DNA of 61,346 nucleotides, from IMG/VR virus record IMGVR_UViG_3300049629_000715, positions 1-61,346 of that record; one strand, given 5' to 3'. Each line of letters starts with the position of its first letter. The stretch's first letter is position 1. The translations under genes were made by a program, and so were the position numbers. The notes beneath the pieces were generated by a model. The model was given only the letters and a program-made list of their open reading frames with translations, had not been told where the DNA came from and did no database searches. This DNA comes from a virus (taxonomy: Duplodnaviria; Caudoviricetes). This document shows positions 1,338-59,158 of the stretch, piece after piece.

Positions 1338-3221
1338 ATGCCTAAACAATTTAATTGGGTTCCAAGTTCGCAAGGCGGAAGTTGCCAATCAACAAATCTT
1401 GATTGCAATTGGCCTATTGTTGGCGCAACGGGCGGAGTCGGCGCAACAGGAGCGACTGGCGTTATCGGAATGACCGGATTGCAGGGAGCAACCGGAATTC
1501 AAGGGCTAAAAGGAGCAACTGGATTTGGCGCGCAAGGACCGCAGGGGGCTACTGGCGCGATTGGGCAACAAGGGGCAACCGGAAGTGGCGCAACAGGATT
1601 AACGGGAGCCAGCGGAGCGACTGGCCTTCGCGGAAGCACGGGTTTTATCGGAACAACCGGAGCAACTGGCCCGATTGGTATTTCTCCCGTCATTACTCGC
1701 AGGAGTTTTACTTTAGAAGGAATTTGGGTTGGTCAAAAAACATTTTTTTATGCTCCTGCTGATGTTGGATGGACTGTTGGTTCCCGTATTCGCGCAGTTG
1801 CAGATTCGGCTTATCCTTTTGATTGGGTTGAAGGCAATGTTCTTGGTGTTTCCAATAGTTATGTAATTGTTCAAGTAGATAAAACTCAAGGAGCAGGTCA
1901 ATACAATGTTTGGGATATTGCTCTTTCTGGTGATGGCGGGAAAGGATTTACTGGAAGCACAGGAACAATCGGATCGACTGGAGCGACTGGATTTCAAGGG
2001 GCAAGCGGAATAAATACAATTTACGCTGAAAATAATCCAATACCTCCTTTGTCTCCAGTCGAAGGGCAAAGATGGGTTGATACCGACACATTGCAAGAGT
2101 ATCAATGGTATAGCAATACTTGGGTTGAAGTAAATTCTCCAAATGTTGGCGCGACTGGGGCAAGTCCTGATGTGTCATCTTTCGTTCAGAAGTCAGGCGA
2201 CACGATGATTGGGAAACTTGTTGCTCCAGCAGATGCCAATGTATCAAGATTAAATATTGGAAATAACATTGGTTCAAATGTTCCAACAACTACAACAAAT
2301 GGAGATTTGTGGATAAATGATCTTAATAAATTATCATATAAATCTAATTCAACGAATTATTTTACAGCAGTAACAAATACTCCAAACACATTTAGTTTTA
2401 GCACAGGAATTGATGTAAGCAATACCACTCACGCATTGCGAGTTACTCAAAGAGGGACAGGGGAAGCGTTTCGCGTAGAAGATGAAACAACACCAGATGC
2501 AACTGCTTTTGTTATCTCTAATGCTGGACGAGTTGGTGTTGGCGTTACTCCAGACGCATCAGTTTCACTTTCTGTTGATACAACAGGAATTAAATTTGGT
2601 GATGGAACGATTCAAACAACCGCTTCTGTTGCTGGCGCAACAGGATTGAGAGGTGCAACTGGAGCGGGAGCCACAGGAGCCACAGGATTTATTGGCGCGA
2701 CCGGAGCCACAGGATTGCAGGGCATCTCTGGGAATATTGGGTCAACAGGAGCAACAGGAATTCAAGGAATTTCTGGAAATATTGGATCAACAGGAGCAAC
2801 CGGAATTCAGGGAATTCAGGGAATTCAGGGAGCAACCGGAGTTCAGGGGATTCAGGGGATTCAAGGCGCAACTGGAATAGGAACGCAAGGAATTCAGGGT
2901 GCAACTGGAGTGGGCGCAACAGGAGTTCAGGGAATTCAGGGGATTCAGGGATTTCAAGGCGCAACTGGCCCAGCAGGCGGGGGCGGGACATCAGTCGCGG
3001 GTAATGTCTGGACATTTACTGGAAATGGATCGACAGCAACTTGGACATTGACAGGAAACACTACTGGGCCTACAAATTCCGCATTGTATTTAGCGGCAGT
3101 TGATGGAATACTTCAAGCACCCGCGAACTACACGATCAATAATGTTTCGCCAAGAACAATTACAATTTCAACAGTTCCAAACGGCAGTTCACTCGTTGTA
3201 GTTTCACTATCAAACGCATAA
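1338..3221 (+). CDS. Collagen-like (GATG repeat) tail fibre protein
   Basis: Many GATG/GIQ triplet repeats, a [10 protein letters not shown] fibre motif and a C-terminal beta module. Confidence 0.8.
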
Positions 3222-3234
3222 CAAAATCAAAACA

Positions 3235-4965
3235 ATGTCTTGCAATAACAATAATCAAAATTCGCCTTGTTGCCCTGAAATTCCTTACCCTCAAATTTCA
3301 GCAGAATCGGTTCCTTCATTGATTGGAAATCTTGTTTATGCGCTTTACGGAGTTATCAACAAAAGCGTGGTCAATGGCCGTGTTGTTTGGGATATTCCGT
3401 GTGATCCGAATAATACTACCGAGGTTGAACAGATTCCGCGAGAAGAAGGGGAAGGATTGCTGTGTTACCTTCTTCGTTTGTTTGCAAATTCGCTTGATAG
3501 CTATGGTCAGTTTTTGCGGTGGGGGTTTTCTACTGTTGGGCAAACCCAATTTACTTTGACAGGAGCATGGCAACCTGACCGAAACGCCTATATCGTTTAT
3601 GTAAACGGAGTCGTTCAAGACCCAATTTCCTACACCATTTCGACAACTCTTCCGAGAGTTTTGACAAGATCAGTTGCTCTTACAAGCGGACAAACATTGA
3701 CTGTTGTTGAGCTTTCCAGCAAAAAAGGAGAAACCGGAGCTACTGGATTTCAAGGAAGCACGGGATTCACGGGATTCACGGGAAGCACGGGGTCGGGCGC
3801 AACAGGATTTCAAGGAGCAACTGGAACTGCTGGCAGTGCTGGCCCATTTGGAGGGATAAGATGGGCTTATTTCGGAAACGGAACGCAGACTCAATTTGTA
3901 ATAAATGGAGCAACGACAGATAATGCTATTGGTTATCAAGTCACAATTGATGGAATTGTTCAAGACCCGAATAATTATTCTGTGTCAGGAACAACGCTTA
4001 CCATGTCTTCTCCTGTTCCTGATGGTTCTGGAATTGTAATAATAAGCCTAAATGGAATTGCAGGTTTTCAAGGCGCAACAGGGCCAAGCGGAGGGCCAAT
4101 CGGAGCAACTGGCGCGACAGGGGTTGGCGCAACTGGATTGCGCGGAAGCACAGGATTTCAAGGCGCAACAGGATTTGGAGAAACTGGCGCGACTGGATTT
4201 CAAGGTTCTACTGGGCCGTCAGGAGGCCCGACTGGCGCAACAGGATTTACGGGGGCAACAGGAGCCGCCACACCAGCAGGCGGAACAAGATGGGCATTCA
4301 CAGGGGACGGAACTCAAACGGCATTCACGATTACGGGAGCGGCAACAAATCTCGCAACGGCATATCTTGTTGCTATTGATGGAGTGGTTCAAGACCCAAA
4401 CAATTATACTGTTAGCGGAACCACACTCACGATGTCAACAGAAGTTCCAAATGGTTCTGGACTGGTGATTGTGTCAATCACAGGACAAATAGGCGCAACA
4501 GGACTTGCTGGATTTGGTGCAACTGGAGCAACAGGAATGCAGGGAATTCAGGGAATTCAAGGCGCAACTGGAAATTCTGGAGCGACAGGAAATTCCGGAG
4601 CGACAGGAGCAACGGGAATTGGAAACCCCGGAGCTACTGGCGCGACTGGTTTTACAGGAGCAACTGGGCCAAGTGGAGGACCAATTGGCGCAACAGGCGC
4701 AACTGGTTTTCAAGGTGCAACAGGAATTCTTCCTGCGTCTAATTTTGGGAATGTGTGGTCATATACAGGTGATGGAACGCAAACAGTATTTGCAATCACT
4801 GGAGGACTCTCTATAATTTCTGCCGCTTACCTCGTTACAATTGATGGCATCGTTCAGAAAACAACAAACTACACAATCAACAATGTCATCCCAAGAACAT
4901 TAACATTTAGTCAAGCGGTTCCAAACGGATCAGAAATCAACATCGTATCACTTTCAGTAGCTTAA
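3235..4965 (+). CDS. Collagen-like fibre/decoration protein with four repeated beta modules
   Basis: GATG tracts alternate with W-x-[FY]-x-G-[DN]-G-T-Q-T…IDG-x-VQ…NY modules. Confidence 0.8.
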
Positions 4966-5001
4966 CAATCAAACAACAATTAAAATAGAAAAACTAAAAT
5001 T

Positions 5002-6138
5002 ATGCCAATCACTCAATCGACACCAAATGTCATTAAATCAAATGTTTTGCAAGGTTCACCTTTGCTTGTAACCGCTGGAAGTCCAGTAAATTTTTCAAAT
5101 TTACAATTTGTAAAAAACGGGACAATAAATGGAAGAAATACTTATTTTAATGATGATTTAAATGATAGGGTTACAATTTCTTATACTGGAACAAATTGGA
5201 AAATAGAAGAAGTGGACGATGATACTGGCGCAATTCGAATAGTAAATGCAAGTGCTGGCTCTCAAACTTATCCTTGGCAAGCCACATGGCCCGCTGGAAC
5301 ATCTTTTGTTTTTGGAACTCCAGTTGCTAATACAAATTCATTTTTCGGAACAGCAGAAAGTGACCCGCAAACGGGTGGAATTTCTTGGATAGGTGAAAAT
5401 ACAGCAATAGGATATAACACATTAGTTAATCTTGTTTCAGACCCAAGCCAACGAGCAGGCGTAGCTGATAGATGGCAAGCGAGAAGCAATACAGCACTTG
5501 GGTCTAAAGCTTTGTCTGAATCTACTGAAGGAAGTTTTAATACAGCACTTGGAGCAGACGCATTGATATTAAATTCTCAATTTGTTCAAAATTCAACTGC
5601 TCTTGGATATAACGCTCAAATAACAGCAAGTAATCAAGTTCGTCTTGGCAATACTTTCGTAACAGCAGTCACTTCCCAAGTAGGGAATCTTTCTGACGAG
5701 AGAGACAAAGCAGAAATCCGAAACACGATTCTTGGGTTGGATTTCATCAAACAACTACGACCCGTTGACTGGAAGTGGGACTTTCGCGAAGATTATCGTG
5801 AAAAAGCACCTGTTCGACCATCAAGTGATGCTACTGAAGAAGAAAAAGAGGCATATAAATTGGCCCATGCAAAATGGCTTGAAGATTCCAAACTTGCAAA
5901 TATTACGAACGACGGAACACACAAACGCACTCGTTTCCATCATGGCTTGATCGCGCAAGAAATTAAATCATTGATTGAAACGACTGGAGTAGATTTTGGT
6001 GGATTCCAAGATCACACAATCAAAGGAGGTGATGAGTGCATGACTATTGGTTATACTGAATTGATTGGCCCAATGATCAAGGCAATCCAAGAACTTTCTG
6101 CTGAAGTTGCTTCTTTGAAAGCTCAACTGAACCCCTGA
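5002..6138 (+). CDS. Tail fibre/spike with C-terminal intramolecular chaperone (peptidase S74-like)
   Basis: NTA[IL]G repeats, then SDERDK…LGLDFIKQLRPV…HGLIAQE and a terminal coiled coil. Confidence 0.85.
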   Translation: MPITQSTPNVIKSNVLQGSPLLVTAGSPVNFSNLQFVKNGTINGRNTYFNDDLNDRVTISYTGTNWKIEEVDDDTGAIRIVNASAGSQTYPWQATWPAGTSFVFGTPVANTNSFFGTAESDPQTGGISWIGENTAIGYNTLVNLVSDPSQRAGVADRWQARSNTALGSKALSESTEGSFNTALGADALILNSQFVQNSTALGYNAQITASNQVRLGNTFVTAVTSQVGNLSDERDKAEIRNTILGLDFIKQLRPVDWKWDFREDYREKAPVRPSSDATEEEKEAYKLAHAKWLEDSKLANITNDGTHKRTRFHHGLIAQEIKSLIETTGVDFGGFQDHTIKGGDECMTIGYTELIGPMIKAIQELSAEVASLKAQLNP

Positions 6139-10547: not shown

Positions 10548-12670
10548 TGAAATCCCCGCAAATCACATCAGGCAGAGATGTAAAAGCGACAAGCGGATGG
10601 TTTGCTGGCGTCAATTCGATTAGAAATCCGTGGGCGTTACCAGAAAACCAATTCAAGTGGGGTGTTAATGTTCAAGTCCGAGGCGGAATTGTTCAAACAA
10701 GACCCGGAAATGCAATGAGACTTTCTTTGCCTCCGGGAAATTTCCAAGGCGGAATATTCTTTGCGGCTAACAAACAAAAAAAATCACCTACAACTCAAGA
10801 AATTGATGGCCAAACGCAATTTACAGAGGCTGAAATTTTCGATGTTGAAGGAGGTGGCGTTATAGCGCAAGAATTAAACTACATTGTTTTTGCTGTTGAC
10901 GGAGCCGTTTACTATGCGCCATTTCCTTTGGAACAACCAAAAAATTGGGCAGATCATAAATTAACAAATATCAAACTCGATCCTGATGTTGATCAATTTG
11001 TATTCACTCTGGCAACCCAATCAGCGAACCTTTCAACTGGGAAAAATGAAATCGTCACGCCTTCACATCGTGTCGTTTTTATTCAAGACGGGATTTCAAC
11101 GCCTGCTTATTGGGATGGTTCAAATAAAACTGGAGAACAGTCAAAAAACATACCTACTGGATATTGGATGGCGTTTTCAGGGAATCGTCTTTGGATAGCT
11201 GATAAAAACATCGTATTAGCTTCTGATTTGGGAGACCCGACATCATGGGAAGAAAGAAAAAGCGGAACGGGGAGAGGTGATTTTGCTTTTAGCCGACCGA
11301 TTACCGGATTGGTCAGTTATGTTGGTCAAGACACTTCTACGCGATTGATCGTTTTCACGGATAGATCAACATTTTCTTTGGCGAGCGGCGTCCTCGATAG
11401 GAGCCAATGGACTTCAACAGCAAATTTTCAGAATACGCTGTATCCGACAATCGGTTGCGTTGCTGGCAAAAGTATTACATTTCAAGCTGGTCAAATGTGG
11501 TGGTATTCTCAAGGCGGATTTGTCGCGGCGGACGTTGCGGCGGCATCTTATTTGTCTTCGCAAGTTCTTTTCAAAGATGTCGAGATGGCGCGAAGCAAGC
11601 AATACATGTCTGGTGACATCACAAAAATATGTTGCACTTCATTTGAAAATTACATTCTTGTCAGCATCCCCTATCTGGAAAAATTGAATAGCCAGACAAT
11701 GGTTCTTGATTACGCGGCGGCATCAGAATGGACGCAAGCGCGATCTCCTGCATGGTGTGGTGTTTGGACTGGAACTCGACCTGTTGAATGGGTCAGCGGA
11801 ATTATTGACGGGCAACAGCGTTGTTTTCATTTTAGCGTAGATTATTCTGCGACATCAGACGGGTCTTACAATCATCTTTGGGAATCTTTCGTTCCGCAAA
11901 GATACGATTCTTATTTCGATATAGAATCTGATGGCAGTATTACAGAACAACGCAACAGGATATATTGTTCTATGGAAACCGCCATGCTCGGAGATGGCAT
12001 GGATTACAAACAATTTATCTACTCTGAAGTTGAAACGAAAGAAATAGGCGGGGAGGTTGATATTGCCGTTTCGTTCCGTGGTAGCAAAGGCCAATACAAG
12101 CGGATTCTTTCACAGAAAATTCTTGCAGTTACAGATGACATCCAATGGAAAACAACTCCTTATGCCAAGGAAATTGAAAAACTCGGTTATCTAAAAACGC
12201 AATATCGGCGATTGATTACGGAGTCCGCTCAACGCACGATTGATTATGAAACTTGTGAAAGCGATTATACGATTGATATTGACAAGGCATTTTCAATTTT
12301 GGTTGAATGGTGCGGTCAACTTGGTGTAGAAATCGTCAGAATTTATCTTGATCCATACCCAACAAAAGCACTCGGTGTTCCGCAAAGAAGTGAAACAAAA
12401 CATTGCGTTGTTGGCGACGGCGGGGCAAATATTACTATTGCCAATTTGCCGAATGCGTATGCAGTCGGTGATGGCGTTCAAAAATCTTGGTATGCTACGG
12501 CTTTCAAAACAATATCTGTTCCGTGCGGGCCAACAGGGACAGTTGCGGCAACAGCACAAGCATCGTTTTTGTCATACATCAGTTATTCCCACGCTTACGA
12601 AGAAGCACAAAAACTTGCAGAGCAAGCCGCGACATCGGCGGCGCAACAATACGCGGCAGAGAATTGTTGA
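10547..12670 (+). CDS. Putative tail nozzle/tubular protein B (P22 gp10 / T7 gp12-like position)
   Basis: 707-aa beta-rich protein; WFAGVNS…P N-terminus and NRLW…SDLGDPTSW motif; synteny. Confidence 0.65.
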   Translation: MKSPQITSGRDVKATSGWFAGVNSIRNPWALPENQFKWGVNVQVRGGIVQTRPGNAMRLSLPPGNFQGGIFFAANKQKKSPTTQEIDGQTQFTEAEIFDVEGGGVIAQELNYIVFAVDGAVYYAPFPLEQPKNWADHKLTNIKLDPDVDQFVFTLATQSANLSTGKNEIVTPSHRVVFIQDGISTPAYWDGSNKTGEQSKNIPTGYWMAFSGNRLWIADKNIVLASDLGDPTSWEERKSGTGRGDFAFSRPITGLVSYVGQDTSTRLIVFTDRSTFSLASGVLDRSQWTSTANFQNTLYPTIGCVAGKSITFQAGQMWWYSQGGFVAADVAAASYLSSQVLFKDVEMARSKQYMSGDITKICCTSFENYILVSIPYLEKLNSQTMVLDYAAASEWTQARSPAWCGVWTGTRPVEWVSGIIDGQQRCFHFSVDYSATSDGSYNHLWESFVPQRYDSYFDIESDGSITEQRNRIYCSMETAMLGDGMDYKQFIYSEVETKEIGGEVDIAVSFRGSKGQYKRILSQKILAVTDDIQWKTTPYAKEIEKLGYLKTQYRRLITESAQRTIDYETCESDYTIDIDKAFSILVEWCGQLGVEIVRIYLDPYPTKALGVPQRSETKHCVVGDGGANITIANLPNAYAVGDGVQKSWYATAFKTISVPCGPTGTVAATAQASFLSYISYSHAYEEAQKLAEQAATSAAQQYAAENC

Positions 12671-12672
12671 TT

Positions 12673-12930
12673 ATGCCATCTATTAAAACAGCTTCAGTTC
12701 CTGTGACGAATTTCCCATACAAATTCGTTTCCCCATTCAGCGATGACAACATTATACCGCTTTATTCTTCGATCAATTTTATTAACGAAAGAGAAACGAT
12801 TTGTTTGCCATGTGTCGTGTGTGGTAATAATGTAACTCGTCAAAGCGTGATTGAAGAACAGGCGAGCCGATATAAGAATTACATCCCAAATCAATTTAAT
12901 AGAAATAGAATCCGAGTTGGATCAGCATAA
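12673..12930 (+). CDS. Hypothetical protein with CxxCxxC
   Basis: MPSIKTASVP… start at 12673; ICLPCVVC. Confidence 0.6.
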   Translation: MPSIKTASVPVTNFPYKFVSPFSDDNIIPLYSSINFINERETICLPCVVCGNNVTRQSVIEEQASRYKNYIPNQFNRNRIRVGSA

Positions 12931-12932
12931 AT

Positions 12933-13310
12933 ATGACAAAATCAATATCATACAAAACAATACCAAAAGACAGCGGCGAGTTTCTCGAACTCGTAGATTT
13001 CGCAGAAGAATTCGATCACAAAATTGTTGATCATCCGCAAATCAATGTCATCGGTCACTACAAAGACGGAAAACTTTTCGGGTATTCAGATCATGTATTC
13101 ATTCCCGTGATTTATCCGGCGTTTCATCCGGCACACACAACGCCGAGGGATGTTTTGCAATCTATGCACGATCTAAAAGTTTTCGCAGAGGTTTCTGGTT
13201 CCGCAGGATTTATCGGTGTTCCGCTTGAATCAGAAAGAATCACATTCACGAATGGAATAATGCAAAAACTCGGCTTGCAAAGAATGCACCGAGAGCTTTA
13301 TACTTTATAG
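12933..13310 (+). CDS. Possible GNAT-fold virion assembly protein (P22 gp14 / T7 gp13-like position)
   Basis: 125 aa, ends …MQKLGLQR…; sits between the nozzle and the MGG-start proteins. Confidence 0.4.
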   Translation: MTKSISYKTIPKDSGEFLELVDFAEEFDHKIVDHPQINVIGHYKDGKLFGYSDHVFIPVIYPAFHPAHTTPRDVLQSMHDLKVFAEVSGSAGFIGVPLESERITFTNGIMQKLGLQRMHRELYTL

Positions 13311-13320
13311 GAGAAAAATT

Positions 13321-14187
13321 ATGGGAGGAAGTTACCAAGTTCCGACAACCTACAATACAGCGGCAATGTTGCCTCCGCCTGATTCGCAAGGCACATACAA
13401 TATTCTAAAAGCATCGTCGCAGTTGGGTGGCGGAGCGATGGATTTGCATCGCAAAAATGTTGAAATGGCATCCAAGATGCCGCCGATTCGGATGGAGTAT
13501 AATCCTTCGGAACTTTCAAAACAAACAGCGGAATTCGGTGTTGGTAATGTGTTGAGGGAGCGTCAAATTGAATCTTTCACCAATCCTGCGGCGGCAAGAA
13601 TGCGTTTGGATATTGCCGAGCAAATTGAAGAGGCGACTTCTCCAGATGCTTTCAAATCTTTTTTTGATCGGTTCGCTAAAGAGCGTGGAATTTCTTCAAT
13701 AGCTGGTAGCGGGATTGATCCAAACAGCACGATTGGACGATCCGCGATTTATGACGCAACAACGGAAGCTGGCAGGAATTTTCTGTTAGGGAATATCAAC
13801 GCTCGGCAAGGGTTTTTACAGCAAACTCCCGCTCCAATTGGCGGAATTGATCCCGGACAGGCAATTTCCGCGCAGGAAGCCAACAGAGCCGCAAATATCG
13901 GTCAAATGAACGCTTGGCAAGCAGGACAAATGCAGAATGTTTTTGGTCTTGGCCAAGGATACGCTGATTTCGTTAATAAAATGATGGGTGAAACGCTCTC
14001 CGCGAACCAAGCGGAGCAAGCAAATTTGCGTCAATATCAAGAAAAACTCATCAACGATTTGCTTGGGCAAAAAAACGCAGAAAATCAAATGCGAGGAATG
14101 GCGGCGCAAGGCGACCAAGCGATGACTGGCGCTCTTGCTGGCGCGGGAATTGGCGCGGTTGGCTTGATTGCGGCGGCAATGATTTAA
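13321..14187 (+). CDS. Putative DNA ejection/internal virion protein
   Basis: MGGS start, Q/A-rich helical body, C-terminal Gly-zipper hydrophobic tail GALAGAGIGAVGLIAAAMI. Confidence 0.6.
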   Translation: MGGSYQVPTTYNTAAMLPPPDSQGTYNILKASSQLGGGAMDLHRKNVEMASKMPPIRMEYNPSELSKQTAEFGVGNVLRERQIESFTNPAAARMRLDIAEQIEEATSPDAFKSFFDRFAKERGISSIAGSGIDPNSTIGRSAIYDATTEAGRNFLLGNINARQGFLQQTPAPIGGIDPGQAISAQEANRAANIGQMNAWQAGQMQNVFGLGQGYADFVNKMMGETLSANQAEQANLRQYQEKLINDLLGQKNAENQMRGMAAQGDQAMTGALAGAGIGAVGLIAAAMI

Positions 14188-14188
14188 T

Positions 14189-15154
14189 ATGGAAAACCTA
14201 ATAAATACGACAGTCGAATACATAAAATTGTGGAATCAAAATTGGCCGAGATCGGTCATTTTTTGGTCTGGCGGGAAAGATTCAACGGCATTGTTGCATC
14301 TGATCAAATTTCGTGCTGGCTTGGATTTGCCAGTTGTTCAGTTTCGAGAACCAAAATTCCGCGAACGATACGCTTATAGTGACAAACTCATTAAAGACTG
14401 GAAACTCGAAGTTCACGATTATCCGCCGCTTCGCGTTGCTTTGGCTGATGGGCCTGATGTCAATACTGGCGAGGTTCGCTTTGATCTACTGAAATACTTC
14501 CAATGGGGTCAAAAGTGCATGGTGATGAGCCTCGGAACAGAACGACCAAAAGAAGGCGAAGATTTTCTGTGTGGATTGAATGACTTTCTGTTTCGCCCAA
14601 CGGGAACATTTAATTGGCCTTGGGGCGCGGTTTGGATTGGAACGAAAAATACCGACACAGACCTCATTAAAGGCCAAGTTGCCGTAACAACTCACATTCG
14701 CTACGCAGACGGCTCCCCTGTGAGCTTGTATCCCCTGCGAGATTGGTCAGATAAAGATGTTTATGACTACTTGGAGCTTTCTGGAGTTGAACCTGATCCA
14801 ACTCGATACATTAAAGAAGGTGAAAACTGGATAAACAATCCTGACAAGAGCTTAAACGCAGATTTTTATCCTGTTTGCTTGAATTGCGTTGATCGCCACC
14901 AAGGGCAATATGTTGATTGCCCGAAATTGAAGGCAAAAACCAGCAATATCAGCCATCTCGCGCCTTACGAAGATATTGTTATTGATGACCTCGGGTTCCG
15001 TCCGGTAGATTGGAAAAAAAATAAATCAATATGTATGACTGTGAAACCTGCGGAGCCTGTTGCGCCTACAAATGGTCTTGGCCCGTCCTCAAACGAGATA
15101 AATCAGACGCAAACGGAATACCGCACGACTGGATTCGCCCAGACTACCCATTGA
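14189..15154 (+). CDS. PAPS-reductase/DndC-like PP-loop (adenine nucleotide alpha hydrolase) protein
   Basis: FWSGGKDS PP-loop, YPLRDWSDKDVYDYL motif, C-terminal CLNC…C. Confidence 0.8.
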   Translation: MENLINTTVEYIKLWNQNWPRSVIFWSGGKDSTALLHLIKFRAGLDLPVVQFREPKFRERYAYSDKLIKDWKLEVHDYPPLRVALADGPDVNTGEVRFDLLKYFQWGQKCMVMSLGTERPKEGEDFLCGLNDFLFRPTGTFNWPWGAVWIGTKNTDTDLIKGQVAVTTHIRYADGSPVSLYPLRDWSDKDVYDYLELSGVEPDPTRYIKEGENWINNPDKSLNADFYPVCLNCVDRHQGQYVDCPKLKAKTSNISHLAPYEDIVIDDLGFRPVDWKKNKSICMTVKPAEPVAPTNGLGPSSNEINQTQTEYRTTGFAQTTH

Positions 15155-15306
15155 TGAAAACAGAAAATAACAGATGCGTTGCTTTAAAAGGGGAAATCGG
15201 AGTTTCCGTTAAGTGTTCTGTATATAATTGCAGGCCTACTGCGTGTAGAAAATTTGAACCCGGATCAGAGTTGTGCATTGAAGCAAGAAAGGCGAAAGGA
15301 ATATAA
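15031..15306 (+). CDS. YkgJ-like Cys-cluster (CxxCxxCC, Fe-S/Zn) protein
   Basis: DCETCGACC…RCVAL…CSVYNCRPTACRKF…C. Confidence 0.85.
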   Translation: MYDCETCGACCAYKWSWPVLKRDKSDANGIPHDWIRPDYPLMKTENNRCVALKGEIGVSVKCSVYNCRPTACRKFEPGSELCIEARKAKGI

Positions 15307-15308
15307 TT

Positions 15309-15872
15309 ATGGGCGGATCATCATTCGGAAAACAATTTGGCAAGATAACAACTAAAATTGTTGATCCTTTTGGAATTGGCAAAACTAAATTCGGTAAGAC
15401 CGTAATGAAAGTTGTTGATCCATTAAACATAATGGACCCATTGAATGTATTACCCGGAAAAGGTGAGAAATGGGGAACTCTAGATAAAAATTATGGTGGC
15501 CCATTAAGAAAAATGTTTGGCGGAGGCGGCGGAGGAAGCGTCGGATATCACCAACCATACGACTTTAAAGCAATGCAAGGAATGATGCAAAGCGACACAT
15601 CAAATCAGATGATGGGCGATTTGATAACGCAACAGGCAATGGCAAATCAGGCGGCATCTACGCAAACGGCGGCAAATTTACAAGCGGCAAACGCTCAACA
15701 ACAGCAAAACATCAATTCTGCTATGCAAAATTCTCGTCAAAACATGAACAATTTTTTGCTTCGGACGCCAGTTCCATCTACATTTTCAGCAATTACACCA
15801 GCAACCCAAAATAAAACAACTAACAACGCATTCAAAACTCCGAATGTTGCTGGTTTGACATTCGGAAGTTAA
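15309..15872 (+). CDS. Putative internal virion protein A (MGGS start, C-terminal tag)
   Basis: Low-complexity Q/A/N; ends NAFKTPNVAGLTFGS. Confidence 0.65.
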   Translation: MGGSSFGKQFGKITTKIVDPFGIGKTKFGKTVMKVVDPLNIMDPLNVLPGKGEKWGTLDKNYGGPLRKMFGGGGGGSVGYHQPYDFKAMQGMMQSDTSNQMMGDLITQQAMANQAASTQTAANLQAANAQQQQNINSAMQNSRQNMNNFLLRTPVPSTFSAITPATQNKTTNNAFKTPNVAGLTFGS

Positions 15873-15887
15873 TAGAAAGGAAAAATT

Positions 15888-16463
15888 ATGGGAGGATCAG
15901 CCCCAAGAGGACCAAGTCAAAGTCAAATCAATGCGCAAAGAGCGCATGAACAAGCAATGTTGAAGATGCAAATGGATCTTGCTCAACAGCAAATGAAACA
16001 ACAGCAGGATATGCTCAAATATCAAATAGAACAGGCTAATAAACAGCGCATTGCCGCAGAGGAGGCCGCAAAACAGGCGGCAATCCAATCACAATCTGCG
16101 ACAGCACAAAATGCCGCACAACAAAACCTGCAAGATGTCGCTCAAAAAATTGAGGGCATGAATACGATGCAAAATTTGGCTGATCAATCAACATTGGCTG
16201 ATTATCAAAATAGTTTGACAACAGGAGCTGAAAACATGACCGGAGGTTATGATATGGCTAATGCAAAAGAATCTGCTATGCAGAATCTCGGATTGGCTTC
16301 TGGTTCACTTCCGCAAACGCCATCGAATTTGATCGGTTCTTTGTCTGCCGTGAATCCGGCTATGACAACTGCGGCAATAAACACGCAGGCCGGAGGAACA
16401 AAGCAATCGCAAAATCAATTCAGCTTGCCAAATACCAGCGGAATTGTTTTGGGAGGAACATAA
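15888..16463 (+). CDS. Putative internal virion protein B (MGGS start, C-terminal tag)
   Basis: Q/A-rich coiled coil; ends NQFSLPNTSGIVLGGT. Confidence 0.65.
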   Translation: MGGSAPRGPSQSQINAQRAHEQAMLKMQMDLAQQQMKQQQDMLKYQIEQANKQRIAAEEAAKQAAIQSQSATAQNAAQQNLQDVAQKIEGMNTMQNLADQSTLADYQNSLTTGAENMTGGYDMANAKESAMQNLGLASGSLPQTPSNLIGSLSAVNPAMTTAAINTQAGGTKQSQNQFSLPNTSGIVLGGT

Positions 16464-16464
16464 T

Positions 16465-17292
16465 ATGGCTGACATTCTAAAAGAAATCGAAGACGCGGGA
16501 AGAAGTACCGACAATGTTGTTGGGCATTTGACTGTTGGAGAAATTGTTATTCCTGTTCAACTCGCAGAAATTCCAGAAGTAAAAAAAGCAATAAAAGCTA
16601 TTTTCCAAGAATACGGAGTTAGCTTGAATGAATTTACGGTGGGAAATTCTGAAAATAAGATCAATCCTGAAACTGGATATCCGGAATTTTTCTTTAAAAA
16701 AGCTTGGAACGCTGTTAAAAAAGTAGTTTCAGGAGCTGGTAAAGCTGTTAGCAATACAGTGAAGAATGTTAGTAAAGTTGTTACAGGTAAATCTAAACCC
16801 AAAGCTCCTAAAACCACAACTCCTGCCGCGACAAGCACAACGCAAGAAGATTTGCAAAAACAATTGGATCAGGGGAAAAAAGATTTTAAGAAGACGATGG
16901 CTGGCCTGAAAAAACAAGATGAAGATAACAGAATAAAAGCTGAAAAAGACGCAAAAGATCGAGCTATTGCCGAAGAATCTGCAAGAGCAAGAGGTCTTGC
17001 CGCGACAAATCAACAGGAAATAGCAACACAACTTGATCAAGCTCTTTCAAAACCTTTGATTCAAGATGTCGTCACAAATGCTCCTCAATATAGTCCGAGC
17101 GGATTTGGTGCTGATATGCCAAAAAAAGCTGTTCCGGGAGCTGGCGGAGGGCCAACCCCTTCTGAAACAGCCGCGACAATGCCAGCGGGTCTTTTGGCGC
17201 AAAAAATCAATCAAGACAGCGGCGGAACAAATATGGCGACTAATCGTTTCAATATCCCAAATGTAGAAGGTCTTCAATTCGGAGGCTCGTAA
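16465..17292 (+). CDS. Putative internal virion protein C with INPETGxPEF domain and C-terminal tag
   Basis: GRSTDNVVGHLTVGE…INPETGYPEFFF; ends NRFNIPNVEGLQFGGS; start MADIL at 16465. Confidence 0.65.
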   Translation: MADILKEIEDAGRSTDNVVGHLTVGEIVIPVQLAEIPEVKKAIKAIFQEYGVSLNEFTVGNSENKINPETGYPEFFFKKAWNAVKKVVSGAGKAVSNTVKNVSKVVTGKSKPKAPKTTTPAATSTTQEDLQKQLDQGKKDFKKTMAGLKKQDEDNRIKAEKDAKDRAIAEESARARGLAATNQQEIATQLDQALSKPLIQDVVTNAPQYSPSGFGADMPKKAVPGAGGGPTPSETAATMPAGLLAQKINQDSGGTNMATNRFNIPNVEGLQFGGS

Positions 17293-17295
17293 TTT

Positions 17296-19005
17296 ATGAC
17301 TAACGCTGGCTATAATTTTTCATACACTCCTAAACCATCATCCGCATTAGCAAATCTGAATCCGATTTCACTCGGCGAAGGATTAAGATTTCAAGCTGAC
17401 GCGCCGATGAAATTCATTGAACAGCGGCCAGAGGTCGTGATGGAAGGAATTTTGAAAGGTCGCCAGCAAATGGCTGAATCTATTACAGAAGGAGCCTTAT
17501 CCGCTCTTGGTAATATAACGGGAGCGTTCAAAGAGGAACGGCAAGCCAAAAAAGAAGCTCAAGAAAAAGCGGATCAACGAGAGCATGAATTAACGATTTG
17601 GGATAAACGCGTCACAGCCGTTAAGCCTGAAAATGAACGCGACATTCTTTACGATAACCTTCGGAATCAACTTACAGAACAAAAGTTGTTGGAGATGGAA
17701 AATCGGGTGAATGCCGTAACGCCAACTGCTGTTCGTGAAAAAGGATATTTTTCTAGTGATCCAGTAGATATTCCGATTGAGGATATGCCGAAGAGTTTAG
17801 ATGAGGAGAAAAAACAATCTTCCTTGATGAATTTGCAGACTCCAATTCCTAACATTGCGTCTAATGAGCCTGCTCCAATTTTATCGAACATCAACGACAT
17901 TTCAGCCTTTGCGCCTCCTGTTGACGGATACTCATTGGCTGGCGTTAGTGCGCCTAAAACTGCCGACCGAATTTTCCCTACAAGTGAAGGTCAGGTTAAT
18001 TTTGGCGGCGAGACATTTGAATTAGAGCGAGTCAGCGGAGCAGAAGGGGTTCCTACTCTTGCTTCTACTCCTGCGCCGCCACCAACCAAAGCTCCTGTTT
18101 CAAAACAGCAAGCGGAACAATCTCGCTTGACTCCTTCTCCTGCGGAGTTCGTTGATAAAGTAACTGGTCAACCAGAATCAAAGAAAAGACAGCCAACCGC
18201 GTATGAAATTGAACAATACTACGCTGGCGAGCCATACGGCAGTCTTGCTGACGCTAATTTTGCCAAACGCGAAATGGGCAAATTAGGATATAAAACTAAA
18301 GTTACGCCAATCGAAGACCCGACAAGCAAAAAGCGCATCTATTATGTGGAATACGAGCAAGCTGGCGAGGAACCAACAAAAGGGTTAAGAATGGTTGAAG
18401 CCACGGAAAAAGATGGCGTAATAACCAAGAAATACGAGCCGGAAATCGCTCCTAAAAAGAAAATATCAGCATTAGATAGCGGTCAATTTCAGTTAGAGGC
18501 AATGGTAAAATCTATCAATGATATTAAAAAATTGCAAACCGAAGGATATTTACCAGAAACTGGAAAATTCTCATCATATCTTGCAAAACTTCCTGTCACA
18601 ACAGACGCTTCAAGGACACGAGGATTTTTGAAACCTATTCTGGCTAATGCCGCTTTCAAAGCAATTACAGAAATGCGTCAAGCAAGCCCCACGGGGGCGG
18701 CAGTTGGTGGTGTTTCGGATAAAGATTTGGAACTATTGATGAATACCATGGGGGCAATCGATCCAGACAATCTTGATGATCCGTATTTCACAGAAAATCT
18801 TAATAAGATTGCAGAACTTGCACAAAGAACTCTTTCTGGCATTCAGAATGACAAAGTTGCAATCTTGAAACAGGTAAAATCGCAAGGAGAAGAAATAGAT
18901 GGAATTCCTCTTGTTGAAAATCAAGCAGAATATGATGCTGTTCGTAAAGGGCGGCAGTATTACGGGTTGAAAACTGGCCAACTAAAACTTTTTACTAAAG
19001 AATAA
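17296..19005 (+). CDS. Putative ejection protein
   Basis: Helical C-terminal domain with MRQASPTGAAVGGVSDKDLELL motif, typical of podovirus-type ejection proteins as I recall them; synteny. Confidence 0.55.
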   Translation: MTNAGYNFSYTPKPSSALANLNPISLGEGLRFQADAPMKFIEQRPEVVMEGILKGRQQMAESITEGALSALGNITGAFKEERQAKKEAQEKADQREHELTIWDKRVTAVKPENERDILYDNLRNQLTEQKLLEMENRVNAVTPTAVREKGYFSSDPVDIPIEDMPKSLDEEKKQSSLMNLQTPIPNIASNEPAPILSNINDISAFAPPVDGYSLAGVSAPKTADRIFPTSEGQVNFGGETFELERVSGAEGVPTLASTPAPPPTKAPVSKQQAEQSRLTPSPAEFVDKVTGQPESKKRQPTAYEIEQYYAGEPYGSLADANFAKREMGKLGYKTKVTPIEDPTSKKRIYYVEYEQAGEEPTKGLRMVEATEKDGVITKKYEPEIAPKKKISALDSGQFQLEAMVKSINDIKKLQTEGYLPETGKFSSYLAKLPVTTDASRTRGFLKPILANAAFKAITEMRQASPTGAAVGGVSDKDLELLMNTMGAIDPDNLDDPYFTENLNKIAELAQRTLSGIQNDKVAILKQVKSQGEEIDGIPLVENQAEYDAVRKGRQYYGLKTGQLKLFTKE

Positions 19006-40796: not shown

Positions 40797-41030
40797 ATGT
40801 ATATCATTATTAGAATCAAACAATACGATGGCGAAAAAGGGAAATATTGGGGTGTGGATCACGGTCACGGATTTCCTTCTGTTCTGCACGAACGATACGA
40901 TGAAACAACAGAAGAAGCCTCTCGTTTAGCAAAGCAAAATCCTGACTGCCATTTTGCGATTTTTGAATACGACACAGCCGCAATTTGTAAAATGCAACCT
41001 CCAATTTGGATCGAGAAAGAAGACCTATGA
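40797..41030 (+). CDS. Hypothetical protein
   Basis: EEASRLAKQNP…FAIFE motif. Confidence 0.65.
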   Translation: MYIIIRIKQYDGEKGKYWGVDHGHGFPSVLHERYDETTEEASRLAKQNPDCHFAIFEYDTAAICKMQPPIWIEKEDL

Positions 41031-42142
41031 GATTTCACATTCTTGGATTACCGCATACTGTTACGAATAAAGAATTTGTTGCGTGCGCTTATACGCAGAA
41101 AGTTCTGAAATTTGGGAAAATGATGAAAGACCTCGGACACGAGATCATTCATTACGGCCACGAAGATTCAGAGCTTATGTGCGACGAGCATGTCACAGTT
41201 CTGACCAACGACGATTTCCAGAAAAGTTATGGTTCCCACGACTGGAAAAAAACCTTTTTCAAGTTTGATACTGGCGACCATGCGTATCAAACCTTCTACG
41301 CCAACGCGATTCGGGAAATTGCAAAGCGAAAACAACCGAACGATTTTCTTCTTCCATTTTGGGGATCAGGAGTCAGAGCAATTTGTGACGCTCACGGCGA
41401 CATGATCGTTGTAGAACCGGGAATCGGATACGCTGGAGGACATTGGGCGCGGTGGAAAATTTTTGAATCCTACGCGATTTATCACGCTTATTGCGGATTA
41501 GAGTCTGTAGGAACTTGCCGCCAAGATTGGTATGAAGTTGTTATTCCGAACTATTTCGACCCCAAGGATTTTGAATACAATGAAAACAAAGGCGATTACT
41601 ATCTTTATCTTGGCCGAGTTTATGGCGGCAAAGGATGCGAAATCGCATTTCAAGCGGCAAAGCTGGCAAATGTTAAATTGATCGTCGCCGGACAAATTGA
41701 ACAAGGCTACAATCTGCCAGACCATGTGGAATATGTCGGCTACGCCGATTCAGAAAAAAGAAAAAACCTGATGAGCAACGCCAAGGCATCTTTCATCCCT
41801 TCGCAATACATTGAGCCGTTCGGAGGAGTTCAAGTTGAAAACCTTTTCTGCGGGACTCCAACGATAACAACTGACTGGGGAAGTTTCGCGGAAAACAATC
41901 TTCACGGAGTCACCGGATACAGATGCCGAACGATGGGGGATTTTGTTAGAGCGGTTCAACTAATTGAATCAGGAATGATAAAATCAAAAAATTGTCGCCT
42001 ATGGGCTGAAAACTTCTCTTTGGAGAGAGTTGGCAGGCTTTATGAGAAGTATTTTAAGGATGTTCTGGATGTTTATACTGGCAAAGGCTGGTATGCAGAT
42101 TGCAATGGTTTAACTCCTTTGATGAAAACATATCCGTATTGA
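41027..42142 (+). CDS. GT-B (GT4-like) glycosyltransferase
   Basis: YLGRV…KG, EPFGGVQVE…GTPTITTD…HGVTGY. Confidence 0.9.
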   Translation: MRFHILGLPHTVTNKEFVACAYTQKVLKFGKMMKDLGHEIIHYGHEDSELMCDEHVTVLTNDDFQKSYGSHDWKKTFFKFDTGDHAYQTFYANAIREIAKRKQPNDFLLPFWGSGVRAICDAHGDMIVVEPGIGYAGGHWARWKIFESYAIYHAYCGLESVGTCRQDWYEVVIPNYFDPKDFEYNENKGDYYLYLGRVYGGKGCEIAFQAAKLANVKLIVAGQIEQGYNLPDHVEYVGYADSEKRKNLMSNAKASFIPSQYIEPFGGVQVENLFCGTPTITTDWGSFAENNLHGVTGYRCRTMGDFVRAVQLIESGMIKSKNCRLWAENFSLERVGRLYEKYFKDVLDVYTGKGWYADCNGLTPLMKTYPY

Positions 42143-42148
42143 TAAAAT

Positions 42149-42730
42149 ATGAAATTTGATTTTGTTGATATCGGAACAAGCGATTTTGATCTCGGATATG
42201 GTTCAGTTGGCTTGCAGTCGAGCCATCTTCTTATTGAACCCGTCAGCTACTACCTTAACAGGATTCCTGAAGCGGAAGGAGTTGTGAAAATAAATGCGGC
42301 AATATCTGATCGTGACGGAGAAGGGGATGTGTATTATTTAAGCGAGGAAACAATCGCAGAATTAAAATTGCCTTTTTGGGTCAGAGGTTGCAATCGGATT
42401 AGCAGTCCGCATCCGACATTGGTAAAAATACTAAATGGTCAAGATGCGTGGAGCATTCAAAAAATTAGAACGATAAAATTTTCAACGCTGATTCAGGAAT
42501 TGAAAATTGAGGCCATCGGGAGCTTGAAAATCGACACAGAAGGACTTGATCATATTGTCTTGAGTGGCGTTGCTGATTGCATCGATTCAGGACTATCGGT
42601 TGATCGCGTAATGTGCGAGTGGGTTCCTGCTTTCGGAAACACAGAACAACTTAAAGAACTATGTTTCAGATTGTGGAATTATTTCCCGAAACAAGAATTA
42701 AAAGGCGAAGACATTTATCTGACAAAATGA
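42149..42730 (+). CDS. FkbM-like methyltransferase
   Basis: FVDIGTSDFD, IEPV, NAAIS and LKIDTEG motifs. Confidence 0.8.
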   Translation: MKFDFVDIGTSDFDLGYGSVGLQSSHLLIEPVSYYLNRIPEAEGVVKINAAISDRDGEGDVYYLSEETIAELKLPFWVRGCNRISSPHPTLVKILNGQDAWSIQKIRTIKFSTLIQELKIEAIGSLKIDTEGLDHIVLSGVADCIDSGLSVDRVMCEWVPAFGNTEQLKELCFRLWNYFPKQELKGEDIYLTK

Positions 42731-43632
42731 AAAATATATTATTCTTTACTCAAAATCGATGGGCCTTTGGATCGTTACATCACGGACTCGCAAAGGAGTT
42801 ATGGAAACATGGCATCTACGCGAATCTTTTGGATTGGACAGTCGAATACAGCCAAGAGGAATTCAAACTTCTCCGAGATTCATACGATGTTTTCGTAACG
42901 ATGCCGGATGCCGTTCTTGCTCTCCATTACAAATATGGCGTAGAACTGGAACGCATTGTTGCCGTAGCTCACGGGCAATGGGACATCCTTCTCGCCAAAC
43001 AACAAGCCGATCAAGACTTCTACCCGAAGCTGAAAGGTTTCGGGGTCATTAGCAATATATTGAAAAGAAAATGTGATGAATGGCAAATCTCAAGGATTCC
43101 TGATGTCGTAGAACTCGGGATTCACACAAAGACTTATCGTTTCCAATTGCCGGAATCTTTGGGTGTTGTTGGATACGCAGGATCAGGAGAAACAAGGAAT
43201 TGGTATGGTGAGGAAATTAAAAGGCCAAATCTGGCTGAACAATCAGTTCTCGGAATTGAAGGATTAACCTTCAAGAAGCATCAGTTCTACAACCATCTTT
43301 GTATGCCCGGATATTACAAAAGCGTGGATGCTGTAATAATGTCCTCAATAGAAGAAGCAGGAGGACTCCCAATGATGGAGTGTGCCGCCGCTGGCCGATT
43401 GCCGCTCGGAACTCCTGTGGGCTATTTTGAAGAGAATGCACCGCAAGGCGGAGGCATCCTTTTACCTCTTGATGAAGCGGCATTTGTTCAAGAGGCCCAA
43501 GTGCAGTTGAATTTCTATCAGAAAAATAAGATGCAATTTATCGGTAGATGCAAAGAAATAAAAGAATATGCGCTTGAAAATTACGATTGGCGTGTGAAGA
43601 TTGCGCCATGGATCAAGCTATTTTGTGAGTGA
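42727..43632 (+). CDS. GT-B glycosyltransferase
   Basis: MSSIEEAGGLPMMECAAAG…GTPVG…NYDW. Confidence 0.8.
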   Translation: MKNILFFTQNRWAFGSLHHGLAKELWKHGIYANLLDWTVEYSQEEFKLLRDSYDVFVTMPDAVLALHYKYGVELERIVAVAHGQWDILLAKQQADQDFYPKLKGFGVISNILKRKCDEWQISRIPDVVELGIHTKTYRFQLPESLGVVGYAGSGETRNWYGEEIKRPNLAEQSVLGIEGLTFKKHQFYNHLCMPGYYKSVDAVIMSSIEEAGGLPMMECAAAGRLPLGTPVGYFEENAPQGGGILLPLDEAAFVQEAQVQLNFYQKNKMQFIGRCKEIKEYALENYDWRVKIAPWIKLFCE

Positions 43633-45053: not shown

Positions 45054-45383
45054 GTGAACTTGAAAAGAAAAAAACCTCTGCGCTCTAGAGCGACATTCAA
45101 GAAGCGAACGCGCATAAGACTCGTATCCGAAGCTCACGGGAAGAAATTGCTTCAATATCAAATCCTGCGAAGAGAGTTTCTGATGGATAAAAACTACAAA
45201 TGCGAGGTCTGCGGACATGCAGGTGATCAGGTTCATCACAAAGAAGGGCGAGGAAAGAAACTTTGCGCTGTGAATACATTCTTGGCAGTCTGCGCCGGAT
45301 GCCATCGCAGGATTCATGACAATCCTGCTTGGGCGCGAGAGAACGGCTATCTAATCTACAATTTTACCAATGCCACCGCTTAA
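45054..45383 (+). CDS. HNH endonuclease-like protein
   Basis: CEVC…VHHKEGRG…VCAGCHRRIH. Confidence 0.8.
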   Translation: MNLKRKKPLRSRATFKKRTRIRLVSEAHGKKLLQYQILRREFLMDKNYKCEVCGHAGDQVHHKEGRGKKLCAVNTFLAVCAGCHRRIHDNPAWARENGYLIYNFTNATA

Positions 45384-45957
45384 CAACAAGCTTCACGAAA
45401 AGTTTGCATGGCTGGTTGCCGAGGGCGATTCCCATACCGAGGCATACCGGAAGATCATGCCGCATGTCGCCTCGCCTCGCGTTCTTGCTCACAAGGTTTA
45501 TCACAGAGCTGATGTTAAAAGCCGGATTTCAGAAATCCGTCAAGAGGTTGCCACCCGATCCATTCTTTCGATATCGAGGAAGCGGGAAATCTTGCGCCAG
45601 ATGGTTGAAGGCACATTCCCAACCAAGATCGTCCGCAACCCAAATGGCAACATCGTGGCAGTATTCGACCGATTGGCCGCTCTCAATATGGACGCAAAGA
45701 TTGCAGGCGAATTTGCGCCAGAGCGCCATGAGATTATCGCTAACGACCTCCGCCTGACATTCAAAATTAAGGGACGGAATACCAATGCACCAGAGGACAA
45801 CGACATCATAGAGGCTGAAATCGTCGAAAGCCGAACCGATTCCGTTCCCGTCATAGAAGATGCTCCGGAAGATGAAAACTTCGGGACAGACGCAGACCTC
45901 TCGGCATTCGAGAATGCGCCAATCGACCCATCGCAACCGCAAATCGACACGCTTTAA
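45370..45957 (+). CDS. Terminase small subunit
   Basis: LNNKLHEKFA…G…AY N-terminal HTH; directly upstream of the large subunit. Confidence 0.75.
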   Translation: MPPLNNKLHEKFAWLVAEGDSHTEAYRKIMPHVASPRVLAHKVYHRADVKSRISEIRQEVATRSILSISRKREILRQMVEGTFPTKIVRNPNGNIVAVFDRLAALNMDAKIAGEFAPERHEIIANDLRLTFKIKGRNTNAPEDNDIIEAEIVESRTDSVPVIEDAPEDENFGTDADLSAFENAPIDPSQPQIDTL

Positions 45958-47865: not shown

Positions 47866-48537
47866 ATGAAAATACAACAGCCAAGTAAAATTGAGAAAAT
47901 CGAAGTTGAAAAACTAATCCCCTACGCAAGAAACAGCCGAACCCATAGCGATGCTCAAGTGGCGCAAATCGCCGCAAGTATTCGTGAATTTGGTTTTAAC
48001 AATCCTGTCCTTATTGGGCCTGATAACGACATCATCGCTGGTCATGGCCGAGTATTGGCCGCAAGAAAACTTGAGCTTACAAGTATTCCTTGTATCAAAC
48101 TCGGACATCTTACCGAAAACCAGAAACAGGGATTTATTATCGCTGACAATCGTATCGCCATGAATGCCGGATGGGATGATGAAATGTTAAAACTTGAAAT
48201 AGCAAAACTAAAAAATGAAAACTTCAATTTAGATTTGATTGGTTTTTCATCAGCTGAATTAGATGTGATGATAGGATCATTAGATGGTGAAAAGGTAACA
48301 AATCTAAAAGATGAATGGACTGGCATGCCAGAATATGAGAAAAAGGAAATTTGTTTTAGAAATGTTGTAGTAAATTTTGATAATGCCGAGGATGTTACAG
48401 AATTCTTCAAAATAATTGGTCAGGATTTCACAGATAAAACAAAATCCATTTGGTTCCCTAAAAAAGAAAAAGATATTGTCATAGATACAATGTGGATTGA
48501 TGAAGAAGCAATTGACAATTCAGATGAACAGGAATAA
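47866..48537 (+). CDS. ParB/Srx N-terminal domain protein
   Basis: LIPYARNSRTH…SIREFGF…IIAGHGR…IADNR. Confidence 0.9.
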   Translation: MKIQQPSKIEKIEVEKLIPYARNSRTHSDAQVAQIAASIREFGFNNPVLIGPDNDIIAGHGRVLAARKLELTSIPCIKLGHLTENQKQGFIIADNRIAMNAGWDDEMLKLEIAKLKNENFNLDLIGFSSAELDVMIGSLDGEKVTNLKDEWTGMPEYEKKEICFRNVVVNFDNAEDVTEFFKIIGQDFTDKTKSIWFPKKEKDIVIDTMWIDEEAIDNSDEQE

Positions 48538-59148: not shown

Positions 59149-59158
59149 AATATTGAAT

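Follow-up and report, generated by a model that had tools for sequence, protein, structure and literature searches.

The locus described here raises the question of why three consecutive proteins of a tailed phage should share a C-terminal ending of about sixteen residues. The locus lies in a virus genome (Duplodnaviria, Caudoviricetes; IMG/VR record IMGVR_UViG_3300049629_000715) that is complete at 61,346 bp and has direct terminal repeats; the whole of this stretch is referred to below as the window. Three adjacent genes encode proteins p1, p2 and p3, each of which ends in a peptide, referred to here as the tail, with the common form N-x-F-x-x-P-N-x-x-G-[LI]-x-[FL]-G-(G)-[ST]-stop. An earlier reading of the bare DNA sequence (the original prediction) had pointed out this ending on what it took to be otherwise unrelated virion proteins, and had suggested that it was either a targeting signal for cargo loading or a recognition and conjugation tag. 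The analysis summarised here shows that the tail is genuine, a C-terminal module under strong constraint that had not been catalogued before and is confined to an abundant group of uncultured ~60-kb phages. Going by its pattern and distribution, it is best understood as a variant of an established concept, the terminal packaging or docking peptide.

The tail in the window and in related phages

The C-termini of the three open reading frames (ORFs) are as originally written. A regular expression based on the common ending (N.F..PN..G[LIVM].[FLIVM]G) has three matches in the six-frame translation of the window, all three directly before a stop codon, where residue frequencies lead one to expect 1.3e-4 and 200 shuffles yield none. 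At the nucleotide level, the three tail sequences are 48–64% identical in pairwise comparison. The similarity is thus kept at the level of the peptide and not via recent gene conversion, in line with the earlier claim that selection acts on the peptide. Upstream of the tail the three proteins have their own layouts: p1 has an N-terminal region with the pattern FGK..K(V/I)VDP and a Q/N-rich body, its tail being a single-glycine variant (GLTFGS-stop); p2 has a Q/A-rich body, then GGT-x4, then the tail; and p3 has an N-terminal domain (approximately residues 1–100, with the pattern AGRxTDxVVGHLTxGEIVIP), a p2-like body (residues 108–275) and the tail. The ATG start of p3 is backed by homologues, an alternative TTG start at 16444 having no such support. 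The GGT four residues upstream of the motif, also part of the original description, is found in p2 as well as p3, and is seen again in relatives.

Conservation beyond the window was followed in several sets of sequences. Eighteen IMG/VR loci were retrieved using the PP-loop gene that lies upstream of p1 as anchor: fourteen of these contain one to three consecutive ORFs that end in the tail, and in the remaining four only 6 to ~1,240 bases of contig lie beyond the anchor gene. When a profile of the last 50 residues was searched against 1.84 billion (1.84e9) representative proteins at E ≤ 1e-3, 56 matches were obtained, 54 of them C-terminal and in register in proteins of 28–278 amino acids without known domains; the remaining two belong to a fibre-like repeat protein (P0180) and a 926 amino acid low-complexity protein. 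Of 21 near-complete genomes of the group, selected by the 403 amino acid capsid-like protein of the window, 20 carry the tail, in one to three clustered copies each. The p1 family, drawn from a collection of 5.8 billion proteins, has 38 members, of which 34 meet the tail expression and 36 start with Met-Gly-Gly (MGG), whilst in the p3 family the tail is kept by the closer relatives, down to ~31% identity. The search of protein C-termini that the original prediction had proposed as a check has confirmed the observation, with the tail terminal almost wherever it is found. The tail is restricted to this phage clade. Phages in GenBank gave no DNA or protein match to the region, to p3 or to the 414 amino acid scaffold-like protein of the window.

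Across 112 distinct tagged proteins the constrained positions, counted back from the C-terminus, are N(-16) (101 proteins), F/Y(-14) (111), P(-11) (111), L/I(-6) (109), F(-4) (110), G(-3) (all 112) and G(-2) (107). The residue that follows Gly-Gly is small and variable (A 31, S 28, T 21, V 11, M 8, K 4). Twenty-two tails give the consensus N-x3-G-G-T-x4-N-x-F-x-L-P-x2-S-G-L-x-F-G-G-x and the module of the family as a whole can be written (GGT-x4)-N-x-[FY]-x-[LMI]-P-x3-[GDN]-[LI]-x-F-G-G-x-COOH. Within sets of orthologues conservation is higher over the last 16 residues than elsewhere in the protein (identities of 0.51 and 0.38, respectively, for p1, 0.72 and 0.47 for p2, and 0.69 and 0.30 for p3). 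Each orthologue has its own flavour of tail (p1-type PDMSxIKFGG, p2-type PKTTGLQFGGT, p3-type GLQFGGM) and the three-gene arrangement with these flavours recurs in several genomes.

Prokaryotic genomes were scanned with an IUPAC back-translated DNA pattern for the motif and stop codon, in one genome for each of 185,579 species. Five stretches were found, one of which is a true terminal tail, on a 4.3-kb phage-like contig; the other four have TGG in place of the stop and are unrelated internal matches. A stretch in Comamonadaceae genomes (L272, L273 and L275), where a membrane protein of ~770–780 amino acids contains an internal ..LNLFTLPDYFGLRFGGRW.. that fits the back-translated motif, was taken as chance, being non-terminal and in an unrelated protein. 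The fibre-like exception to the profile search, P0180 (512 amino acids, from a metagenome), is made up of units of the type ..ANKYSLPTANGSTLGGIKVG.. and matches the tail profile weakly and in multiple stretches (E 1e-4); the tail may adopt a β-structure like that of one unit of such a repeat.

Protein bodies and the surrounding gene block

The claim that the three proteins are otherwise unrelated holds for p1 but not for p2 and p3. Full-length p2 aligns to residues 108–275 of p3 (28% identity, E 3e-11) and the two family profiles match one another after removal of the last 20 residues (hhalign probability 97.1%, E 4.8e-11, 126 columns), so that p3 is a p2-like body extended at its N-terminus by a further domain. 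The p1 profile with its tail removed, in contrast, shows no similarity to those of p2 or p3 (hhalign probability 0.2%), and the resemblance of p1 to the other two is limited to the last 14–33 residues. The possibility that the three genes are simply full-length paralogues is thus borne out in part for p2 and p3, the extra domain of p3 apart, and not for p1. In some relatives the p3-type body is found alone and then has an MGG start (P0015 and P0024; L185 and L186), and one relative is a mosaic of a p1-type N-terminus and a p2-type core (L011, positions 11669–12394). In all, the tail is combined with no fewer than two unrelated bodies and, in addition, with a fused N-terminal domain.

The tagged genes occupy a characteristic place in a block (Table 1) that opens with an 85 amino acid ORF, a 125 amino acid protein and a 288 amino acid protein, continues in some genomes with the PP-loop gene and a gene for a small CxxCxxCC protein, and runs through the tagged proteins to a fast-evolving protein of ~560 amino acids and a giant protein, the length of which varies among relatives from ~1,000 to 3,305 amino acids. 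The window order of 187, 191 and 275, then 569, then 3305 amino acids is kept in relatives. According to two accounts, the internal virion proteins (IVPs, or ejection proteins) of T7, P22 and epsilon15 are encoded in the order small, medium, giant, and the T7 operon is led by a small non-structural acetyltransferase-like assembly protein (PMC4819975, PMC8954989). The T7 order gp14/gp15/gp16, or IVP-B/C/D, as described there agrees with that of the window (PMC8954989, PMC4819975).

Further evidence comes from the N-terminal domain of p3, which is widespread (210 matches). In other podovirus-like contigs it heads proteins of 350–720 amino acids encoded after tail-tube-like genes, and when six distant proteins with this domain were tested, four matched phrog_598 (‘DNA ejection’) and one (P0030, 175 amino acids, from another lineage) matched phrog_1320, the T7 gp7.3 family (E 6.9e-5). 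From these observations we infer that p1, p2 and p3 are ejection-type virion proteins. There are individual points of likeness to the T7 proteins, in that gp7.3 starts with MG and is basic and gp6.7, of family DUF5476, ends SAFGGKK, as well as a difference, in that the window proteins lack obvious transmembrane helices (as judged by eye) of the kind described for gp14.

A parallel is seen in a second lineage. The p3 N-domain family has C-terminal ends of its own in other lineages (ARRLLGY, EILAGLGY, LLRLYGRA or ..IGYDPTTGRPIYG), and in four loci (L254, L258, L259 and L101) three consecutive small proteins starting with MG share the tail RRRGRAANIL-x8-10-(K/R)(R/Q)LLG[ERY]-stop. These proteins are encoded directly upstream of a 544–547 amino acid protein (at approximately -430 to +615 around the anchor in L254, L258 and L259, and at 3599–4855 in L101), and the last of the three has a p3-type N-domain and matches the T7 gp7.3 family. 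Judging from these loci, neighbouring small proteins have on more than one occasion acquired or retained a common C-terminal end that is peculiar to their lineage. A different shared tail in each lineage is as expected of a docking element co-evolving with a lineage-specific receptor, and the parallel suggests a general principle and not a one-phage curiosity.

Table 1. Location of the tagged proteins, their tails and other genes in the window
Feature	Positions	Strand	Remarks
85-aa ORF	12673-12930		ends ..YIPNQFNRNRIRVGSA-stop; in relatives ..GYLPSELGGNQVIVGTN-stop
125-aa protein	12933-13310	+	head of block; invariant YPAFHP, GYxD and several His
288-aa protein	13321-14187	+	same module; starts MGGS (MGGSYQ..); hydrophobic C-terminus, no tail
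PP-loop protein, 321 aa	14189-15154	+	PAPS-reductase-like, SGGKDS; accessory gene inserted in block
CxxCxxCC small protein (PF03692)	15031-15306	+	distribution follows PP-loop gene
p1, 187 aa	15309-15872	+	starts MGGS; ends ..NAFKTPNVAGLTFGS-stop
p1 C-terminal tail	15825-15869	+	NAFKTPNVAGLTFGS
p2, 191 aa	15888-16463	+	starts MGGS; ends ..NQFSLPNTSGIVLGGT-stop
p2 C-terminal tail	16413-16460	+	NQFSLPNTSGIVLGGT
p3, 275 aa from ATG	16465-17292	+	ends ..NRFNIPNVEGLQFGGS-stop
p3 C-terminal tail	17242-17289	+	NRFNIPNVEGLQFGGS
569-aa protein	17296-19005	+	fast-evolving; position of T7 gp15 (IVP-C)
Giant protein, 3305 aa	19008-28925	+	position of T7 gp16 (IVP-D); HEVQH
Collagen-like tail fibres	1338-6138 and 59153-61345
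Small and large terminase	45370-47834
Portal-like protein, 814 aa	49973-52417
Scaffold-like protein, 414 aa	53414-54658
Capsid-like protein, 403 aa	57882-59093

Several neighbours of the tagged genes merit comment. The 125 amino acid protein is present in all ten tail-positive genomes examined. A protein-language-model search of the ESM Atlas places it near clusters of small viral GNAT acetyltransferases (score 0.97), a lead that profile searches of Pfam, PHROG and PDB, which give nothing, do not confirm; as a lead only, it may be the counterpart of T7 gp13 (IVP-A, an acetyltransferase-like assembly factor). The end of the 85 amino acid ORF is loosely tail-like (an aromatic residue, P, G, then hydrophobic-x-hydrophobic-G-x-x-stop) and the ORF could be a distant fourth tagged member or a chance resemblance. 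The PP-loop ORF overlaps that of the CxxCxxCC protein by 124 bases in the window, the corresponding protein in most relatives having 278 amino acids and an overlap of ~13 bases, and in several relatives the tblastn match runs through one or two TAA codons; the overhang could represent a C-terminal extension, read-through or frameshift. The giant protein has no Pfam family and a single PHROG match (unknown function), at residues 2421–2500.

What the tail may do

How might these observations be explained? The proteins p1, p2 and p3 would be members of a family, peculiar to this clade, that has been shaped by tandem duplication and domain shuffling and is encoded in the ejection-protein block of a ~60-kb uncultured tailed phage, its members being proteins of ~130–280 amino acids, rich in Q, N, A and G and mostly with an MGG start. 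The reading that we prefer, and to which we give an about even chance, is that the tail is a clade-specific C-terminal docking or incorporation peptide. It would be a short linear peptide that docks different small ejection-type proteins on one conserved site during assembly of the particle, candidate sites being the portal/core or the tail channel, and would serve as an incorporation signal and not as a catalytic or conjugated element. From its pattern, the tail probably forms two short strands about a P-x3-G turn, with a hydrophobic face made up of F, L, L/I and F, and the free C-terminus and invariant F-G-G suggest that the end of the tail inserts into a pocket. The originally proposed targeting signal thus keeps much of its force, given an ending that is terminal, more conserved than the bodies it is attached to, combined with different N-terminal modules, encoded in an IVP-like block and paralleled in a second lineage; it is the word ‘cargo’ that proves too strong.

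Precedent for such a peptide is to be found in phage T4, where a short N-terminal capsid-targeting sequence (CTS) on the internal proteins IPI-III, Alt, gp67 and gp68 attaches to the scaffolding core and is removed by the prohead protease. Common to both cases is a short peptide carried by different small proteins, which in T4 are located inside the head and injected; the window motif differs in being C-terminal. None of the window ORFs scanned matched a protease family. A literature search, with supplements outside its range, did not find a shared C-terminal motif of ejection proteins, and the accessible parts of two accounts describe no terminal signal for T7-like or P22-like ejection proteins (PMC8954989, PMC4819975). 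Other known terminal signals fit poorly. Although p2 reads LPNTSG, recalling the sortase motif LPXTG, six residues follow and there is no hydrophobic segment; PEP-CTERM and GlyGly-CTERM sorting signals were set aside for want of a membrane helix after the motif, the outer-membrane β-signal because three residues follow the last aromatic, and the β-clamp-binding motif because its Q position is variable in the tail.

Several results weigh against the docking interpretation. At E ≤ 0.01, p1, p2 and p3 match no Pfam or PHROG family, so that their virion location is drawn from synteny and from the family matches of distant relatives. Twenty p2-type members gave at most one match, and a weak one, to any one PHROG family, and the p2 alignment shows no similarity to gp7.3 or gp6.7 (hhalign probabilities of 0.8 and 0.4%, respectively), in spite of the likenesses mentioned above. 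No enzyme is found among the profile matches, the carriers being only small low-complexity proteins of ≤280 amino acids. As p2 and p3 are paralogues, part of the sharing of the tail reflects common descent, and single-linkage clustering of the proteins with 35 residues trimmed joins the p1- and p2-types via mosaic intermediates. Finally, these data are also compatible with a role that is purely structural or in oligomerisation.

This last role is the most serious competitor, a possible explanation although one that we rate clearly below docking: a paralogous family would have conserved the tail as a structural or oligomerising terminus, not as a signal that brings independent proteins to a common receptor. 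It could, for example, form a β-hairpin that joins subunits into a ring or channel, whether within the particle or, following ejection, within the host envelope. The homology of p2 and p3 along the whole of p2 is in keeping with this, as is the fact that the carriers are all small proteins of one mosaic network in which each orthologue holds to its own tail flavour across genomes. The alternating pattern F-x-L-P...G-L-x-F would suit two short strands, and the weak profile match to P0180 involves fibre-like units of the form N-K-Y-S-L-P-T-A-x-G-S-T-L-G-G-I-K-V-G. Against this, the body of p1 is unlike those of p2 and p3 and yet 34 of its 38 homologues carry the tail, and the number of tagged genes per genome may be one, two or three, indicating that a fixed hetero-oligomer is not required.

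It is unlikely that the tail acts on the host, binding a conserved envelope or periplasmic component after ejection and, for example, anchoring an ejection channel. T7 gp14, gp6.7 and gp7.3 do act in the host envelope after ejection (PMC8954989, PMC4517105), and the tail is far more conserved than fast-evolving neighbours such as the 569 amino acid protein, but tails differ strongly between lineages.

More improbable again is the possibility that the tail acts in the manner of the encapsulin loading peptides, binding the inner face of an HK97-fold capsid protein. Encapsulin loading peptides are C-terminal peptides of ~10–15 residues, composed of Gly and hydrophobic residues, that sit on enzymes and ferritin-like cargo, bind the shell protein and thereby direct their carriers into an HK97-fold shell. 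The tail is likewise C-terminal, short and Gly/hydrophobic (G-L-x-F-G-G), and no protein of the clade is better conserved than the 403 amino acid capsid-like protein (81–89% identity). The one tail-negative genome (G019), however, keeps the capsid-like protein at 83% identity and has a portal that is only 20% identical and a different ejection block with a single MGG protein, ending LPVYGR, which weakens the case for the capsid-like protein as target; the carriers of the tail, as noted above, are not enzymes. The capsid assignment itself is weak: the model of the 403 amino acid protein has a predicted local distance difference test (pLDDT) score of 38.8, Foldseek finds nothing in the PDB at E ≤ 1e-3, even if HK97 capsids take up nearly all of the top rows, and the 120 homologues listed by a sequence search are all relatives of ≥87% identity, without names or Pfam domains.

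Least probable of all is a conjugation or processing tag of the ubiquitin-, sulfur-carrier- or Pup-like Gly-Gly type, acted on by the PP-loop enzyme or a peptidase: the F-G-G-x terminus, an adenylate-forming PP-loop enzyme (SGGKDS) and CxxCxxCC protein encoded directly upstream and the HEVQH sequence of the giant protein would suit it, but only 11 of the 21 related genomes have the PP-loop gene, against 20 with the tail (at least nine genomes having the tail without the enzyme), which excludes the enzyme as an obligatory partner, a variable last residue always follows Gly-Gly, the low-complexity carriers have no recognisable β-grasp or Pup-like match, and no E1-like or PafA-like gene was seen among the ORFs scanned (not every ORF). 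Both the encapsulin-like and the conjugation explanations are disfavoured by these co-occurrence data.

If the tail docks on a phage protein, as we favour, the same comparison of genomes offers candidates. The portal-like protein (62–72% identity), the scaffold-like protein and the 707, 1247, 125, 85, 288 and 192 amino acid proteins are each present in all ten fetched tail-positive genomes and are missing or very divergent in G019, and are therefore candidate partners of the tail, in a comparison that has little discriminating power because there is only one tail-negative genome. The absence of the 569 amino acid protein from G019 is uninformative, as a single-sequence search detects this protein in only five of the 21 relatives. 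A co-fold of the 125 amino acid protein (alignment A3) with full-length p2 (alignment A4), run without controls, is neutral on binding (score 0.00, mark 0.32).

Met-Gly-Gly starts and other features of the genome

The tail is not the only terminal feature of these proteins. An MGG start is found in 80 of the 112 tagged proteins, and such starts are far above chance in the ejection block. Among the 643 ORFs of ≥100 amino acids that lie on the coding strands of 12 genomes, 38 start with MGG, and GG is the commonest dipeptide after the initiating Met. Untagged neighbours in the block also have this start (MGGSYQ.. at 13321 in the window, MGGAKTVNA.. in relatives), many MGG proteins continue with a basic, Pro-rich stretch (for example MGGKKSAPKPEP), and the MGG is lost where the p3 N-domain is fused in front. 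MGG may be a second, N-terminal signal or a site of modification. A further, rather unlikely, extension is a two-ended address code on the small ejection-type proteins of this and related podovirus-like lineages, in which a lineage-specific C-terminal docking peptide would set the loading site (portal, core or tail channel) and the N-terminal MGG would be recognised or modified by the putative acetyltransferase-like assembly factor located at the start of the block. If this were true, tailed phages would have in the tail a portable packaging signal, to be compared with the encapsulin loading peptides.

How short-tailed phages load the small proteins that they eject is poorly understood, and a 16-residue tail would offer a concrete handle on the problem: it could be deleted or transplanted, and structural work could look for its receptor. 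If portable, it might serve for the loading of foreign proteins into phage heads. Should it prove to be merely the end of one paralogous family, its interest would be local, in the annotation of abundant environmental phages.

The remainder of the genome is that of a tailed phage, with nearly all genes on the + strand and no tRNA genes in the 61,346-bp record. In addition to the genes listed in Table 1, those recognised encode RecT, an exonuclease, glycosyltransferases, a TET-associated glycosyltransferase and a ParB-like nuclease. The 414 amino acid protein is only scaffold-like, its predicted model being all-helical and of low confidence (pLDDT 53.7), and an ESM Atlas search with it was uninformative. 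The terminase of G019 is 23% identical to that of the window phage, with which G019 nevertheless shares the fibre genes adjacent to the capsid-like gene and a 178 amino acid protein; this suggests either that a block comprising the capsid-like gene and fibres is exchanged between otherwise different phages or that the 403 amino acid protein is not a capsid protein. Finally, a cluster of modification genes, split between positions 41006-43632, 47866-49408 and 54743-57663 and encoding the glycosyltransferases, the TET-associated glycosyltransferase (PF20691), the ParB-like nuclease and a methyltransferase-like protein, is of the DNA- or sugar-modifying type and points to hypermodified DNA.

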